NCBI RefSeq assembly: GCF_024502345.1
Contig: NZ_JALDNN010000001.1
DNA: 64,000 nucleotides
Strand: one strand, 5' to 3'
DNA from: Escherichia coli
GTDB taxonomy: Bacteria > Pseudomonadota > Gammaproteobacteria > Enterobacterales > Enterobacteriaceae
Shown: one piece after another, positions 1,542-42,058 of the stretch
Layout of the letters: each line of letters starts with the position of its first letter
Numbering within the stretch: position 1 is the first letter of the stretch
Notes under the pieces: model-generated
Seen by the model: the letters and a program-made list of their open reading frames with translations, nothing else
Told to the model about the DNA's origin: nothing
Database searches by the model: none
Translations under genes and position numbers: made by a program

Positions 1542-1904
1542 AATGTCCGTGCCTGTTTATCAGATTATAGGTAAAGGATGCCACAGACAGGATAAAAACA
1601 TGAGTTTTTCACCGCTTTTCGTGAAAATCTTTTGTAGATCTTCTGGATCGCTCGCAAATCGTCATGTGGATAACTTTGTGCATAAATTATTTACATCGCT
1701 TTTAATTTATTATCATGCTTTTTGCAGTATGATGTTTGTCTTTGTTTTTCATGTAGTTAAAAATAAAGCCATCCCTAATAATTGAGATAATGGGATTTTT
1801 TCTAATGTGGATAGATATGAATTATTTTTCTCCTTAAGGATCATCCGTTATTTGGGTCGTTTTCTGCTAAAATCTGCGCCTTGCGCTTCTTTAGCGCACT
1901 GTCT

Positions 1905-2837
1905 ATGGCTAACCTTTTGAATAAATTCATTATGACGAGAATACTCGCTGCGATAACCCTTTTGCTGAGTATCGTATTGACCATTTTGGTCACTATTTTT
2001 TGCTCCGTTCCGATCATCATTGCCGGGATTGTAAAACTATTGCTACCTGTGCCAGTCATTTGGCGAAAGGTTTCGCGTTTTTGTGATTTTATGATGTATT
2101 GCTGGTGTGAAGGTCTGGCGGTATTACTGCATCTGAACCCACACCTGCAATGGGAAGTTCACGGGCTGGAAGGGTTAAGTAAGAAGAACTGGTATCTGCT
2201 TATTTGTAACCACCGTAGTTGGGCAGATATTGTCGTACTGTGCGTGCTGTTTCGTAAGCACATTCCGATGAATAAATATTTCCTCAAGCAGCAGCTGGCC
2301 TGGGTGCCTTTTCTTGGCCTGGCGTGCTGGGCGCTGGATATGCCGTTTATGAAGCGTTATTCCCGCGCTTATTTATTACGTCATCCGGAGCGACGTGGTA
2401 AAGATGTTGAAACCACTCGGCGTTCTTGTGAAAAGTTTCGCCTGCATCCCACCACCATTGTCAATTTCGTTGAAGGCTCCCGTTTCACGCAAGAAAAACA
2501 TCAGCAAACCCACTCCACTTTTCAAAACTTGTTGCCACCAAAGGCGGCAGGCATTGCGATGGCGCTAAATGTACTGGGTAAACAATTCGATAAACTGCTT
2601 AATGTTACGTTGTGTTATCCGGACAATAACCGTCAGCCGTTCTTCGATATGTTAAGCGGTAAACTGACGCGGATTGTCGTACATGTGGATTTACAACCTA
2701 TTGCCGATGAGTTACATGGCGACTACATCAATGACAAAAGCTTTAAGCGCCATTTTCAGCAATGGCTGAACTCACTGTGGCAGGAAAAAGACCGGCTTCT
2801 GACGTCGTTGATGTCATCACAGCGGCAGGACAAGTAA
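1905..2837 (+). CDS. yihG: putative acyltransferase YihG (PlsC family)
   Basis: ORF 1881..2837; the start is probably the internal MANLLNKF at 1905. Membrane N-terminus; position divergent from polA. Confidence 0.8.
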
Positions 2838-2877
2838 ATTTTGCTCGCCTCTGAATGAGCAGAGGCGAGTGAGTATT

Positions 2878-4308
2878 TTAATGAACAAAACGTCCGGCAC
2901 GAGACATAAATTCTTCTTCGCTCATCTCCTGTCCGTTAAAAACAACTTTACCCGGTGTATAACGCAGTTGCAGCGAGGCGGTATTGTTGTCAATCGTGAT
3001 TAACTGAAACATCTGACCTAATGTCATCATCCCGCTGATTTGTTTATCCGCCTGCTTTTGCGCTTTTTCCGCATCCATTCCTTCAGATAAATTAAGCTGT
3101 TTTGCGGTTTCTGTGACGACATTAAGCGGTAACTTCACATCAAAATTGAGCGATTTGATATCTTTGTTTGTGGATGATGAAGATTTGGCTGGGTCGGCAA
3201 TACTGATATCCAGATTGGCATTTAGTTCGCCGAGTGCGTTCTTCCATCTTACCGGTTGTTTAATGGTCGGCTCACTTTTTTGTAATAACGGTAAATACTC
3301 TTTGAACAATGCAGCATTCACTTCTTGCAGAGCAACTTCATCGTTTGCTAACTCAGGGTGTGCAGCAAGCTGCTTCTGCATCGCAATGTTATACTGGATG
3401 ATAAATTGGCGCACTGCTGAGGGATCAATAGATTCAGCAATCAATGACCACTCACCACTACCGAGTTGCTGATTCCCTTTTGTTAACTTATCAAGTTCGT
3501 AGGTCAGATTGACATTGATATAATCTTTGTCTTTAACGCGATCCAGCCTGGTTTTTGCAACGAAAGCATCGATTTGGGCAACGTCTTCCCCGTGATTGAT
3601 AATGTTAATCTGATTAAATTTCGACTCGCTTTCACCAACCGGAAATTTCTTTTCTTCTAATCGCGCCAGAGAATCAATGGTAAAACTTTTTGCCGTTACT
3701 TTGTTCATTGGTGATAATTGCAGAACAATATCTTCGACTTTGCCTTCAATATCCAGGTTAGACAATGAACTACCATCACCATTAAAAGTAAACTGGCCCT
3801 CACCAAAAGAAAACTTTCCATACTCTGCAGGGGCAACATCTAATGTCGTAGAGAATGAGCCACCAAACGCGAATCGCAATGTCGCTTCCACGGGCGATTT
3901 ATTTTTCACGGCGATAAATAGCGGTTGTGTCAGTTCATTATTCACTAAGTTCACTTTTGCCGCTGCCAGTGCTGGGATGACATTACCATGCATTAACATT
4001 GTGATGGGCAACGGACCGTGCTCAACATCCACATCAAATACAACTTTCTGGCCTGGCTTGATATTGAGATCGGGTGCACCGTTATCGAATGTCATTTGCA
4101 TTTGAAAACGAGAATTAAAAAAACCTTTGTCAAAATTTTTATAACTTAACGTCATATCGTAGGCATGTTCACCTTTCTTTTTAGCATCGTTAAAATCTTT
4201 AATAAACTTTTCGACACCAGGCTGAATTTGCGTACCTGTGTACCATGTGCCACCACCCCAGATTACGGCTAACGCAACAATAACACCTGTAGCTGACTTA
4301 CGTATCAT
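2878..4308 (-). CDS. yihF: DUF945-family protein YihF
   Basis: 476-aa ORF with N-terminal signal/TM; position between yihG and dsbA. Confidence 0.8.
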   Translation of the reverse strand: MIRKSATGVIVALAVIWGGGTWYTGTQIQPGVEKFIKDFNDAKKKGEHAYDMTLSYKNFDKGFFNSRFQMQMTFDNGAPDLNIKPGQKVVFDVDVEHGPLPITMLMHGNVIPALAAAKVNLVNNELTQPLFIAVKNKSPVEATLRFAFGGSFSTTLDVAPAEYGKFSFGEGQFTFNGDGSSLSNLDIEGKVEDIVLQLSPMNKVTAKSFTIDSLARLEEKKFPVGESESKFNQINIINHGEDVAQIDAFVAKTRLDRVKDKDYINVNLTYELDKLTKGNQQLGSGEWSLIAESIDPSAVRQFIIQYNIAMQKQLAAHPELANDEVALQEVNAALFKEYLPLLQKSEPTIKQPVRWKNALGELNANLDISIADPAKSSSSTNKDIKSLNFDVKLPLNVVTETAKQLNLSEGMDAEKAQKQADKQISGMMTLGQMFQLITIDNNTASLQLRYTPGKVVFNGQEMSEEEFMSRAGRFVH

Positions 4309-35914: not shown

Positions 35915-38176
35915 TCATCCCCGACGCAAATTCTGCGCCGCCTGCACCATGTTCGCCAGTGCCGCGCGGGTTTCTGGCCAGCCGCGCGTTTTCAGGCCAC
36001 AGTCCGGGTTGACCCACAGGCGCTCTGCCGGAATGCGTTTTGCCGCTTTCTTCAGCAAGGCTTCAATCCATTCCACGCTCGGTACGTTTGGCGAGTGAAT
36101 GTCATAGACGCCTGGACCGATTTCATTCGGATAATCAAACTCTTCAAACGACTCCAGCAACTCCATGTCGGAACGCGAGGTTTCGATGGTGATGACGTCT
36201 GCATCCAGTGCCGCAATCGAATCCATGATGTCGTTGAACTCGCAATAACACATGTGAGTGTGGATTTGTGTGTCATCTTTCGCCACGGCGGCGTTGATAC
36301 GGAAGGCCTCCACGCCCCACTGGAGATATGCATCCCAGTCGCTACGACGCAGCGGTAAACCTTCGCGCAGCGCCGGTTCATCAATCTGGATGATGCCAAT
36401 TCCTGCGGCTTCCAGGTCCGCCACTTCATCACGCAGCGCCAGCGCAATTTGTTTGGCGATGGTTTCACGGCTGACATCTTCACGCGGGAACGACCAGCAG
36501 AGAATGGTCACCGGGCCAGTCAGCATCCCTTTCACCGGTTTATCAGTCAGAGATTGCGCATACTTCGCCCACTCCACGGTAATCGGTGCCGGGCGGCTAA
36601 TGTCACCAATGACAATCGGTGGCTTCACGCAGCGGGAACCGTAGCTCTGTACCCAACCGTTTTGCGTAAAGACAAATCCGTCGAGGTGCTCGCCAAAGTA
36701 TTCCACCATGTCATTACGCTCGGCCTCGCCATGTACCAGCACATCCAGTCCCAAACGTTCCTGTTCAACAATGGCCTGCTTGATATGTTCCGCAATGCCC
36801 GTGCGGTAGTTGTTGGCGTCGAGATTACCCTTTTTGAAATCCAGACGCAGGGTACGAATTTCCGTGGTTTGCGGGAAGGAACCAATCGTGGTGGTCGGCC
36901 ACGCTGGCAGTTTAAAACGCGCACGCTGGGCTTCGGCACGCACTTCATAGACATTCGCACGCTGGCTGTCCTGGGCGGTGATCGCCGCCAGACGCTTTTC
37001 TACTGCCGGGTTATGTACACGAGTAGAGTGACGACGCGCCTGAATTGGAGCGCTCCACTCTGCCAGAGCTGCCGTATCACCACTGTTCAGCGCATCTCGC
37101 AGCAGTGCCAGTTCATGACATTTTTGCAGGGCGAAGGCAAACCAGCTTTTCACTTCTGCATCAAGACGCGTTTCCACGCTCAGGTCGATGGGGCTGTGCA
37201 GCAACGAGCAGGAAGATGCCACCCACAAATCACGTTTGCCGACAATGTCCTTAATTTGCGCATATTTCTCAGTAAGATCGGCGCGCCAGACGTTACGACC
37301 ATTGATCAGACCCGCAGACAGCAGCCAGTCAGAAGGCAGGCGCTTGTGCAGTTCAACAACGTCATCTTTACCATGTACAAGGTCCACATGCAGCCCCTGA
37401 ACAGGCAGCGCAGTAATCGTGTCGAGATTTGGCGTTACGCCTTCAAAATAGGTGGTCAGCAGCAGTTTCACCTGTCCCTGGAGCGCGTCGTAAGCGGGTT
37501 TGTATGCGTCCAGCCACGCCTGTGGTAGTTCCAGTACCAGCGCGGGTTCATCAATCTGTACCCACTCGATGCCGCGTTTCGCCAGTTCTGCCAGCACTTG
37601 CTGATAAACCGGCAGAATGTCGTTCAGCAGGCTAAGGCGGTCAAACTGTTCACCTTTCACTTTCCCCAGCCACAGGTAAGTAACCGGCCCCAGCAGCACA
37701 GGCTTAACGTTGTGGCCCAGCGCCAGCGCCTCGTCCACTTCCTCCAGCAGCTGCGTCCAGGTCAGTTTGAACTGTTGGCCTTTAACGAACTCCGGCACCA
37801 TGTAGTGATAGTTGGTGTTAAACCATTTGGTCATTTCCGCTGCCGCCGCAGGTTCGCCAGTCGGCGCACGTCCACGACCAATACGGAACAGGGTGTCGAT
37901 ATCTACCGAACCGTCTTTGTTCTGATGACGTGGCGGAACATTACCCAGCAGCAAACTGGTGGTCAGTACATGATCGTACCAGGCAAAATCGCCCACCGGC
38001 AGCAGGTCGATACCCGCTTGCTTTTGTTGATCCCAGTGACGAGCACGCAGTTCACGCCCTACTGTCAGCAGTTCTTCACGCGTGGAGTTCCCCGCCCAAT
38101 AACTTTCTTGCGCTTTTTTCAGCTCGCGACGCAGGCCAACGCGAGGGAAACCGAGGGTGTGATTCAATATTGTCAT
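35915..38176 (-). CDS. metE: cobalamin-independent methionine synthase
   Basis: 753 aa, begins [30 protein letters not shown]. Confidence 0.95.
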
Positions 38177-38411
38177 TTTTCTTCCTCTAATTATATGTAA
38201 ATCCTATGGATTTTGAATTTAGGGAAGGCGGCAAGTTTATTCATCCCCGGGAGCTTACTGAAGTAAGTGACCGGGGTGGAGAAACGCAGCCAACGCACCA
38301 TAAATTTAAAAGACGAAGGATTTTAGCCGTCCAGATGTTTACACATCCATAATTGGCGGTTACTGTATATTCCTCAAGCGCAAATTATTCATGCCGAAGT
38401 GAAGGACTTTC

Positions 38412-39365
38412 ATGATCGAAGTAAAACACCTGAAAACGCTACAAGCGTTGCGGAACTGCGGCTCTCTCGCAGCCGCTGCGGCGACGTTGCATCAGACGCA
38501 ATCCGCCCTGTCTCACCAGTTTAGCGATCTGGAACAACGCCTTGGCTTCCGGCTATTTGTGCGTAAGAGCCAGCCGCTACGCTTTACACCGCAGGGAGAA
38601 ATCCTGTTGCAACTGGCAAACCAGGTGCTGCCGCAAATCAGCCAGGCACTGCAAGCCTGCAATGAACCGCAGCAGACGCGTCTGCGCATTGCCATTGAGT
38701 GCCATAGCTGTATTCAGTGGCTGACGCCCGCGTTAGAAAATTTCCATAAGAACTGGCCGCAGGTAGAGATGGATTTTAAATCGGGCGTGACGTTTGACCC
38801 GCAGCCCGCGTTGCAACAGGGCGAGCTGGATCTGGTGATGACCTCCGATATCCTGCCGCGCAGTGGCCTGCATTATTCGCCGATGTTCGATTATGAAGTA
38901 CGCCTGGTGTTAGCACCTGACCATCCACTGGCGGCAAAAACGCGTATTACACCGGAAGATCTCGCCAGCGAGACGCTATTAATTTATCCGGTGCAGCGTA
39001 GTCGACTGGATGTCTGGCGGCATTTTCTTCAGCCGGCAGGCGTCAGCCCGTCACTGAAAAGCGTCGATAACACCTTATTGTTGATTCAGATGGTTGCCGC
39101 GCGGATGGGTATTGCCGCGCTACCGCATTGGGTAGTAGAGAGTTTTGAGCGCCAGGGTCTGGTGGTGACCAAAACCCTGGGCGAAGGCTTGTGGAGCCGA
39201 CTGTACGCCGCCGTGCGCGATGGCGAGCAGCGTCAGCCAGTTACGGAAGCGTTTATTCGCTCAGCGCGCAATCACGCCTGCGATCATCTGCCGTTTGTGA
39301 AGAGCGCGGAGCGACCCACTTACGATGCACCCACAGTGAGGCCAGGATCACCAGCGCGCCTGTAA
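38412..39365 (+). CDS. metR: LysR-family transcriptional regulator MetR
   Basis: 317 aa, begins [41 protein letters not shown]; divergent from metE. Confidence 0.95.
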
Positions 39366-40152
39366 TAAACGTTGGCCAGTGCGGCTGTTGGTGCCAGATA
39401 GCCAGGTTAACCAGCAGCCCTGCCGGAACGTGCATATTATTCATAATGCCCAGCGTTCCGGCGTCCACCTGCGTCGCGCCGTAGTTCCACATAAAGTAGC
39501 CAATCCCGGAAGCCACCACGCCAAGAAACACCAGAATGCCCCATTGCAACGTGGTTTGCGGCATTTTCTGCGCATTTCCCAGCAAGAACCATGCAATTAC
39601 CGCCACCAGGAACGCGCCAAGATAGAACCACGCAAAGGCGTTATGCTGCGGCATCGGGCGAGTTTCCATCAGGCGTTTGTAACCCACCATGCCGATGGCA
39701 AAAGTGATATTGGAGAGTTGCACCAGCAACAAGCCAGTCCAGAAATGGTCGGTGACCTGATCATAGCGAATAATCCCGGCACCAATCACCGCCAACAAGG
39801 CACTAAAAGCATATCCCCAGCGCAGACGGCGCTTACTCATGATGTCATAAATCAGCGTGATGTAGAGCGGCGTCAGTACGGTGAACAGCAGCAGTTCGGA
39901 AACCGTCAGGTAGAGATAAGCGCGGAAACTCAGCATATACATCACGCCGAGCTGCATCGCGCCCACCAGCATATACAGGCCGACTGTTTTCAGGCTATTG
40001 CCACGGGTACGCAGAAACGGCAGAAAAACGAGTGCCGCCAGGCCAACGCGCACCAGCACCGCAAAATAGCTATCGACGTGCCCCGCAAGGTACTCGCCAT
40101 AAAAGCTAAAGGAGAAGGCCCACAGAATCGTGGTGATGATAAGTAGCGCCAC
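39253..40152 (-). CDS. yigM: EamA/DMT-family membrane transporter YigM (biotin transporter BioP)
   Basis: 299-aa polytopic membrane protein; its 3' end overlaps the metR 3' end convergently by 113 bp. Confidence 0.85.
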
Positions 40153-40227
40153 AATGGAAAACTCTTTGATTAACGAGTATCCATTGTAGCGAAGTATCAG
40201 GTTGACAACTGACCAAATAAAGAACGA

Positions 40228-41028
40228 TTACGATAAATAGAGTTTACGCAGATAATGCGGCACCGCGTCGTCGGCATTAGTACCAATCACTTCCAGCTCG
40301 GGATGAAGGTCTTTCAGACGCTGGTGCGCACTGCCCATAATGCAGCCTTTCCCCGCCATCGACAGCATTTCGGCATCGTTCATCCCGTCACCAAACGCAA
40401 TACAATCCTTCAGGCTGTAGCCCAGTTTCTTCGCCACCGCTTCCAGCGCATGGCCTTTTGAAACGCCGCCCGCCATCACTTCCAGACAGGTTAAGGTAGA
40501 GAAACTAACGTTGACGCGATCGCCCCAACGAGCGTTAATCGCCTGCTCCAGCGGCAGCAGTTGTTCATGGGAATCGCAGGTGAAGAACACTTTGCTGACG
40601 CCTTCCGGCTCCAGTAATCCAGGCTCATACAGCGCATATTTGAACACCGCTTCTTTAAAAAAGCGCATCTCTTCCGGGCGATGGCGATTCATAAACCATT
40701 CGTCGTCGCGATAAACGTTAGTAATGATGTCCGGATTGTCGTTGACTACGCCAAACAGATCGCTGGCAATGTCGCGATCCAGGTTATGAGCAAAAATCAG
40801 ATTGCCATCCAGATCGTGAACGCGCGCGCCGTTGGAGGTGATCATGTACGACTTGATCTCCAGATTATCGCGAATTTGCCCCACATCAACGTGGTGACGA
40901 CCGGTCGCAAACACAAAGTTGATGCCGCGCGCGGTGAGCAGCTTCAGGGTTTCTTTGGCGTAAGGGGATAACGTATGGTCGGGAGAAAGTAACGTGCCAT
41001 CTAAATCAGACGCAACAACCTGGTACAT
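40228..41028 (-). CDS. yigL: HAD-family sugar/pyridoxal phosphate phosphatase YigL
   Basis: ORF 40228..41154; the start is MYQVVASDLDGTLL at 41028 (266 aa); HAD motif DLDGT. Confidence 0.9.
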   Translation of the reverse strand: MYQVVASDLDGTLLSPDHTLSPYAKETLKLLTARGINFVFATGRHHVDVGQIRDNLEIKSYMITSNGARVHDLDGNLIFAHNLDRDIASDLFGVVNDNPDIITNVYRDDEWFMNRHRPEEMRFFKEAVFKYALYEPGLLEPEGVSKVFFTCDSHEQLLPLEQAINARWGDRVNVSFSTLTCLEVMAGGVSKGHALEAVAKKLGYSLKDCIAFGDGMNDAEMLSMAGKGCIMGSAHQRLKDLHPELEVIGTNADDAVPHYLRKLYLS

Positions 41029-41035
41029 AAGAAAT

Positions 41036-42058
41036 TTAAACCTCTGTAGAGCGGTTTCCGCTGGGTGAGTTATGCCTGTTGAAAAAATCAACAATGGCGT
41101 GGAGCGCGACTGAGCGCATTGCGTCCTTTTCAAAAAGGATCTCATGGTAAGCACCTTTAATTACCAACGGTCGTCCTCCTTCGACAGGATGGCCCGCGGC
41201 GGTGCGGAGTTCACAAAAACGGTCATGCATGCGGTTATCCACCACGCGTTCCTCTTCAGCCTGCAAGAGAAGCGTTGGCGTGGCGTCATCACCCGCACCG
41301 GCTAACACCTGTTCGCCAGCCAGAATACTTTCGCGTACCCAATGGTAGGTCGGCCCACCGACGCGAATCGTTGGGTCATCAGCATAGAAGCGTAAGTTAC
41401 GTCGATATCGCTGTCTGCTGTGGGTCAGTACGTTGATAGCAAACGGCAACGCGCGCCAGCGCCCGGTGCCTATTGCATAGCCATCACGGAAACGTGGATG
41501 CGCTTCGGCCCAGTTGAGGATCTGCCGTGCCATAAATGACGGCATACGAATCACGATCCCAAACATTGGCGCAGTTAGCGCAATGGCGTCACATACACCT
41601 GGATGGCGTTGCAGAAATAATGTGGAGATCGCACCGCCCATCGAATGTGCCAGTATATAGCGTTTACGCCACGGACCGGGCTGGACCTCCTGTTGCCAGA
41701 ATGCCGCCAGATCATCAACATAATCATTAAAGCGATTAACATGCCCGAGATGCGGATCGGCTAACAGGCGACCGGAACGTCCCTGCCCGCGATGGTCGAT
41801 GATTAAGACATCAAACCCCAAATGGAACAAATCGTAGGCCAGTTCCGCATATTTTACGTAGCTCTCAATACGCCCCGGGCAGATGACTACCACCCGGTCA
41901 TGGTGCTGTGCGCGAAAACGGACAAAGCGCACCGGAATGTCATCCACACCAGTAAACTCTGCTTCATCACGCTGACGCCAGAAATCAGTCAGCGGTCCCA
42001 TGGTAAAAGCAGCAAACGCGTTTTCTCTTGTTTCCCAGTCTTTTTGCTGTTGAAACAT
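41036..42058 (-). CDS. pldB: lysophospholipase L2
   Basis: 340 aa, alpha/beta hydrolase GHSMGG motif. Confidence 0.9.
   Translation of the reverse strand: MFQQQKDWETRENAFAAFTMGPLTDFWRQRDEAEFTGVDDIPVRFVRFRAQHHDRVVVICPGRIESYVKYAELAYDLFHLGFDVLIIDHRGQGRSGRLLADPHLGHVNRFNDYVDDLAAFWQQEVQPGPWRKRYILAHSMGGAISTLFLQRHPGVCDAIALTAPMFGIVIRMPSFMARQILNWAEAHPRFRDGYAIGTGRWRALPFAINVLTHSRQRYRRNLRFYADDPTIRVGGPTYHWVRESILAGEQVLAGAGDDATPTLLLQAEEERVVDNRMHDRFCELRTAAGHPVEGGRPLVIKGAYHEILFEKDAMRSVALHAIVDFFNRHNSPSGNRSTEV

Follow-up and report, generated by a model that had tools for sequence, protein, structure and literature searches.

The 113-bp convergent overlap of metR and yigM in Escherichia coli, an old junction between two unrelated genes

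Introduction

Overlaps between genes on opposite DNA strands can be long, and it has been argued that above 60 bp only the convergent ones can be real (Pallejà et al. 2008, PMC2478687). Among convergent overlaps of at least 5 nt the commonest phase, with 49% of the cases, is 123:132, and putative Rho-independent terminators were reported for just 20% (23/116) of the genes that take part in the 58 convergent overlaps of E. coli (Lillo and Krakauer 2007, PMC2174442). The pair formed by metR and yigM has itself been pointed out by Côté et al. (2016, mBio, PMC5120140), who described that the metR deletion of the Keio collection shows synthetic lethality with bioA and sensitivity to a BioA inhibitor, and who attributed these phenotypes to the concomitant disruption of yigM, with the loss of biotin uptake. 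A role of YigM in biotin transport has been treated in that paper and in two others (PMC4049904, PMC5181783).

In this work we have analysed the metR-yigM junction in a stretch of 64,000 nucleotides of an E. coli contig (NZ_JALDNN010000001.1, assembly GCF_024502345.1), hereafter the window. The overlap is real, ancient and ordinary, and it was already annotated and published. What our analysis adds, and what we did not find in the literature that we examined, is its evolutionary dissection: the point where one gene hands the DNA over to the other, the stop codons locked by the partner, the tails of chance length and the presence of the junction in three families. Very probably, we are dealing with two unrelated functional genes set tail to tail without a spacer, in a frozen geometry, where the overlap is mostly tolerated tail sequence.

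Geometry of the overlap

The features of the junction, as given by the list of open reading frames (ORFs), are:

38412-39365, plus strand: metR coding sequence, 317 aa, ATG start, TAA stop at 39363-39365 (also in RefSeq).
39253-40152, minus strand: yigM/bioP coding sequence, 299 aa, GTG start, TAA stop at 39253-39255 (also in RefSeq).
39253-39365, both strands: convergent overlap of metR and yigM, 113 bp, from the ORF coordinates.

The raw sequence and a two-frame printout show that both frames stay open throughout 39253-39365. The start-to-start distance (40152-38412 = 1740) is a multiple of 3, and the phase of the overlap is therefore 123:132, with codon position 1 facing 1, 2 facing 3 and 3 facing 2. 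RefSeq carries the same overlap in strain 2014C-3061 (metR 1613-2566, bioP 2454-3353) and in K-12 MG1655 (bioP, b3827, 4011076..4011975; metR, b3828, 4011863..4012816). A preliminary description of this DNA, made from its letters, had proposed a 113-bp overlap of two open frames and protein lengths of 317 and 299 aa; the first is borne out by the ORF list, the raw sequence and RefSeq, and the second by both reference annotations, where neither MetR nor YigM ends earlier.

The same description considered that this was a genuine antiparallel overlap and not an artefact, and this also holds, given the identical overlap in RefSeq and the lengths kept in Enterobacteriaceae and beyond, in Yersiniaceae and Pectobacteriaceae. 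We followed here the criteria of Rogozin et al. (2002) and Pallejà et al. (2008, PMC2478687). The two genes share their 3′-end nucleotides on convergent strands with both frames open; MetR and YigM have, at 317 and 299 aa, the lengths of their orthologues in nearly all Enterobacteriaceae matches, with no genome-specific 3′ extension; and the overlap is kept in at least two species (76/80 with exactly 113 bp, and also Yersinia, Dickeya and Rahnella). That one of the proteins truly ends earlier, and that the overlap is just an annotation artefact, is extremely improbable: the first in-frame stop fixes a 3′ end and there is no earlier stop in either frame, both lengths match the orthologues in three families, which is the criterion of Pallejà et al. 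for real overlaps, and a frozen stop codon and last residue of YigM (TAA and Glu299, see below) show selection acting on the end of yigM.

The two genes and their surroundings

MetR is a LysR-type regulator of metE and metH, with the Pfam domains HTH_1 at residues 5-63 and LysR_substrate at residues 86-288. The structure 5fo5 of the PDB covers residues 1-92 of the E. coli protein, and the regulatory domain of the Neisseria MetR (PDB 4ab5) aligns to MetR no further than residue 296. YigM, named in RefSeq “bioP: biotin transporter”, belongs to the EamA/DMT family of transporters, and its Pfam EamA domain reaches residue 275. In the predicted structure of YigM, the last helix (transmembrane helix 10) spans residues 259-280, and residues 284-299 show pLDDT values below 50. 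Distant YigM homologues align only up to about residue 270-285, and have short, unrelated tails of their own. The structure model of MetR was not usable for judging tail disorder (mean pLDDT of 39.7, from a 20-sequence alignment that is too shallow), and the Pfam and PDB limits were used instead. Both C-terminal tails sit past these independent domain limits (Pfam, PDB and the YigM model), in agreement with the substitution pattern described below.

Several other elements occur around the junction. The genes yigL and pldB lie upstream of yigM on the same (minus) strand, and no terminator-like site occurs in the 75-bp gap between yigL and yigM (40153-40227); given the shared strand, the gap and this lack of a terminator-like site, yigM may be co-transcribed with pldB-yigL. 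For yigL, the 308-aa ORF in the list (40228-41154) begins upstream of the annotated 266-aa gene. Two long shadow ORFs run antisense to known genes, one of 255 aa inside yigM (39379-40146, plus strand) and another of 359 aa inside metE (36449-37528, plus strand). The one inside yigM is in phase 123:321, which has the rarest antisense stops (0.023 per codon), so that it is expected by chance and offers no evidence of a gene. The metE-metR intergenic region (38197-38371, plus strand) gave sub-threshold Rfam matches to Ysr49 (27.7 bits against a gathering threshold of 95, E = 0.012) and to the Vibrio AS5 RNA (26.7 bits against 96, E = 0.008), which are probably either chance matches or a reflection of a conserved metE/metR control region.

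Hand-over of constraint across the overlap

The distribution of variable sites along the overlap was followed in 78-81 aligned sequences, with 73-99.8% nucleotide identity to the window. The site-wise tests given here and below treat related sequences as independent, and hence all their p values are approximate. Three parts can be told apart:

39253-39300, both strands: metR-dominated part, with the conserved MetR 281-296/297 opposite the variable YigM tail (~285-299) and the yigM stop.
39301-39317 (~17 nt), both strands: two-frame core, with MetR 297-302 (K/R-S/N-A-E-R-P) opposite YigM 279-284 (W-V-A-P-R/H-S).
39318-39365, both strands: yigM-dominated part, with YigM 263-278 (the end of helix 10) opposite the variable MetR tail (303-317) and the metR stop.

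From 39253 to ~39310, variation falls at the third positions of metR codons, the second positions being almost invariant, and from ~39313 onwards it falls at the third positions of yigM, which are the second positions of metR. That is, the DNA evolves as metR up to ~39310 and as yigM from ~39313. The protected residues are MetR 281-296/297 and YigM 263-282 (the end of helix 10 plus the motif WVHRKWVAP), and in each case it is the tail encoded on the opposite strand that varies. The amino-acid entropy amounts to 1.10 in the MetR tail (301-317) versus 0.19 in the body of the protein, and to 0.80 in the YigM tail (283-299) versus 0.35 in its body.

Both frames are held at once in the small core between the two parts. 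The YigM codons for V280, A281 and P282 are invariant at their third positions (3/14 sites in the core versus 0/191 elsewhere in yigM); these are the second positions of MetR E300, R301 and P302, where R301 is encoded by CGA in 81/81 sequences and P302 by CCC in 80/81. These frozen positions place the end of the conserved MetR at about P302 and that of the conserved YigM at about S284. With two more in MetR (F281 and I282, see below), the sites frozen by the partner frame are five in total, and strong constraint in two frames is confined to some 6 codons, plus a few isolated positions.

This pattern bears on a different reading of the junction, true dual coding, where both C-terminal tails would be functional and the whole 113 bp would be selected in both frames. 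The invariant third positions on both sides of the core count in its favour. Against it, full dual coding calls for low non-synonymous variation in the frames of the tails, and this is absent: the tails have an entropy 2.3-fold to 5.8-fold above that of the protein bodies, and they vary at the second codon positions of their own frame. The disorder predicted for the YigM tail, and the position of both tails past the Pfam and PDB domain limits, point in the same direction.

Stop codons locked in the partner gene

Each of the two stop codons lies within conserved codons of the partner gene, and is thereby held in place:

39252-39257, plus strand: MetR F281-I282 codons TTT-ATT, which contain the yigM TAA stop and set YigM Glu299.
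39361-39366, minus strand: YigM codons 263-264 ([I/L]-[I/T/M]), which contain the metR stop.

Read on the opposite strand, the last two bases of the MetR Phe281 codon and the first base of Ile282 give the yigM TAA, and any TTY-ANN combination yields either TAA or TGA. In the same way, two codons of YigM determine the metR stop, which is TAA in 50 sequences and TGA in 29: codon 263 (Ile/Leu, NTY) contributes its positions 2-3, and codon 264 (Ile/Thr/Met, ANN) its position 1. In the species L036 and L079, where YigM has either Val264 or ATA at codon 263, MetR is one codon longer (318 aa). The persistence of both stop positions in 76/80 species could be taken as a sign of dual coding, but it is sufficiently explained by the conserved residues of the partner, which fix them.

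One aspect of the yigM stop goes beyond this explanation. The codons of MetR F281 and I282 are TTT and ATT in 81/81 sequences, which makes 2/20 frozen sites versus 1/248 elsewhere in metR (hypergeometric p ~0.015, approximate as stated above), and their invariant third positions fix the YigM stop as TAA and its last residue as Glu299. The frozen TAA and Glu299 would be an indirect sign that yigM is translated up to its annotated end.

Length and residual constraint of the tails

In phase 123:132, antisense stops number 0.048 per codon; they leave gaps of 20 codons on average, and the probability of finding at least 18 open codons is 0.41, as calculated from 32 long ORFs of the window. The observed tails, of ~15-17 residues (YigM 283-299, MetR 303-317), have the length expected by chance in this phase, which rules out that they are unusually long open antisense runs and counts against dual coding as well.

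Neither tail has a fixed length in nature. YigM has 284-285 aa in L064, a species of Enterobacteriaceae from the gut, and in two clusters, one of 66 members that is named for Salmonella Gaminara (P0076) and one of 42 members (P0075). In L064, the new yigM stop arises from the MetR codons GTC-AGG, which still encode Val296-Arg297. MetR in turn has 311-312 aa in Dickeya, Pectobacterium, Rahnella and Citrobacter gillenii. These shorter variants indicate that both tail ends are evolutionarily labile, an argument against dual coding along the whole overlap. Two other MetR entries, those of Citrobacter braakii (P0126, 323 aa) and P0210 (332 aa), have tails that are frameshifted past ...LPFVR. They may be sequencing errors or true frameshifts within the overlap, and if the frameshift were real, helix 10 of YigM would be disrupted too.

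Some constraint on the tails can nevertheless be detected, and it makes up the rest of the case for dual coding. The synonymous codon diversity of MetR 281-300 falls to 0.67 of the norm of the gene body (Mann-Whitney, approximate p = 0.001), and that of YigM 264-282, more weakly, to 0.75 (approximate p = 0.09). The MetR codons for H288, C290 and F295 are strongly skewed in a way that retains R293, R291 and Q286 of YigM, keeping the basic cluster R291/R293, and V268 of YigM is almost always encoded by GTG, so that no stop appears in the MetR tail. We read these data as a real but modest selection on a short, basic and probably cytoplasmic YigM tail and on its stop. That both tails are functional and that the whole 113 bp is selected in the two frames is, on balance, unlikely. 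The preliminary description had suggested the conservation of both frames across Enterobacteriaceae as a check of the overlap, and this held in part: the stop positions are conserved, but most of each tail is not, except through the constraint that the partner gene exerts on the DNA.

Transcript ends and RNA

No intrinsic terminator-like site was detected on either strand of the region 38200-40400, so the junction has no bidirectional terminator. On this ground, both mRNAs presumably undergo Rho-dependent termination within the partner gene. Immediately after each stop, C is abundant and G scarce on the transcribed strand, with a GC skew of -0.14 to -0.29 at 39400-39600 (plus strand) and of +0.15 to +0.28 at 39050-39250 (C-rich on the minus strand), a composition which is compatible with Rho-dependent termination in the partner gene.

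An overlap of this kind could also have a regulatory meaning, if collisions of RNA polymerases or a sense-antisense duplex of at least 113 nt coupled metR and bioP, thus linking the supply of methionine and SAM to the uptake of biotin. Biotin synthesis consumes SAM, which gives such a link some sense, and each mRNA, lacking an intrinsic terminator in 38200-40400, must reach into the partner gene, where the C-rich and G-poor stretches past the stops fit Rho-dependent ends; the arrangement is, in addition, very old. We consider this reading quite improbable. The RNA fold of the junction is no better than that of shuffled sequences (z = -1.44 and +0.63), no Rfam match was found within 39253-39365, the conservation is fully explained by coding constraints, and two distant YigM homologues (51% identity) are not adjacent to metR, and function without having it as a neighbour. 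Our literature search found no paper linking the expression of metR and yigM, nor anything relevant on the ends of yigM transcripts or on Rho termination at this gene. In the more specific form in which MetR and BioP would tune each other, through colliding polymerases or a duplex of at least 113 nt between their mRNAs, the idea is very improbable; if it were true, an interaction at the RNA level would be the target of the selection seen in the invariant TAA/Glu299 and in the reduced synonymous variation.

Distribution and age of the junction

A 2-kb query across the locus gave matches in 5425/5426 complete E. coli genomes, and the junction occurs at 95% identity or more in 5423 of these 5426, always beneath the annotations of both genes. 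The preliminary description had supposed that the overlap was a known feature of the chromosomal backbone, and these counts, together with its earlier publication (PMC5120140), confirm that guess. Among the ~5430 locus matches, one falls on a plasmid-typed record, and a few genomes carry two copies. The only genome found with a destroyed junction is that of E. coli Z135-6 (L002, NZ_CP159632.1, locus 1591-3410), in which the first ~139 codons of metR and the first ~75 of bioP are left, separated by ~1.2 kb of other DNA with a 636-bp hypothetical gene (minus strand). Neither MetR nor BioP is expected in this strain.

A genome scan with MetR gave 80 species-level loci, all of them in Enterobacteriaceae, where the overlap measures exactly 113 bp in 76/80 and indels occur in 0/80. 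The four exceptions are an overlap of 98 bp in Citrobacter gillenii (MetR of 312 aa), two of 116 bp (MetR of 318 aa) and one of 68 bp in L064 (YigM of 284 aa). In targeted look-ups, the overlap was found in Yersinia (113 bp), Dickeya (98 bp), Rahnella (95 bp) and a Dickeya-like contig (98 bp), all with the yigM stop at a constant offset from the metR start. The presence of the overlap across the Enterobacteriaceae loci scanned and in Yersinia, Dickeya and Rahnella rules out that it is confined to Escherichia and its closest relatives. Judging from the sequences of the three Enterobacterales families sampled, the junction would be at least as old as the common ancestor of Enterobacteriaceae, Yersiniaceae and Pectobacteriaceae.

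A probable passive packing of two genes

The most satisfactory explanation, as advanced in the Introduction, is a passive one. The packing of metR and yigM without a spacer would have become fixed in an ancestor common to Enterobacteriaceae, Yersiniaceae and Pectobacteriaceae at the least. The two conserved protein cores would meet at ~39301-39317, and past its core each frame would run antisense to the conserved coding sequence of the partner until the first in-frame stop, a run-on that would yield the tails of ~15-17 residues (YigM 283-299 and MetR 303-317). The geometry would have stayed frozen because the stops are locked in codons of the partner and because any indel would harm both genes. 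The tails would be translated, with a sequence that matters little and an apparent conservation that comes mainly from the partner gene, although the YigM tail seems to retain some constraint of its own, at its basic residues R291 and R293, its last residue Glu299 and the TAA that follows. As far as can be told from sequence comparison, both tails would be largely dispensable.

Consequences for mutants

The value of the metR-yigM overlap is practical rather than conceptual: deletions, insertions or recoding at either 3′ end change the other gene too, and a silent change in one gene can truncate its neighbour, as the natural case of L064 shows. With the standard Keio design, the deletions would span 39274-40149 for yigM and 38415-39344 for metR. 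Such a yigM deletion should remove residues 288-317 of MetR, truncating the protein at about residue 287. The shared 3′ ends imply that the phenotypes assigned to Keio metR or yigM mutants need checking.

The loss of YigM function in the Keio metR deletion (PMC5120140) fits well with an overlap that encodes part of the needed helix 10 of YigM. As to the reciprocal effect, MetR may tolerate the loss of its last ~30 residues, since mineral salts medium served to grow a bioH yigM::Km strain in a paper which, as excerpted, does not mention a methionine supplement (PMC4049904).

Comparison with other overlapping genes

With respect to the pair of K-12 (metR b3828 and yigM b3827), the locus of the window agrees in its genes, in the 113-bp overlap and in both protein lengths, and we found no difference in this feature. 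It also shares the main characters of the long convergent overlaps described in prokaryotes (Rogozin et al. 2002, Trends Genet; Pallejà et al. 2008, PMC2478687; Lillo and Krakauer 2007, PMC2174442), that is, the convergent orientation, a length above 60 bp, the conservation in many genomes and the phase 123:132. As in other convergent overlaps, a terminator for either gene would have to sit within coding sequence. Most of the 54 possibly real long convergent overlaps of Pallejà et al. (PMC2478687) are kept only in very close species, whereas that of metR and yigM spans at least three families of Enterobacterales.

The locus can finally be compared with overprinted antisense genes, such as laoB of EHEC (PMC5810103) and other novel antisense genes (PMC9927249), with which it would share the translation of two frames from opposite strands of one piece of DNA. 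Overprinting embeds a new gene in an old one, whereas in metR-yigM only the presumably non-essential tails of two old and independent genes overlap, with no new protein or domain. The locus is thus a clean textbook case of a long convergent overlap that has persisted for a very long time, and it opens no new biological question.
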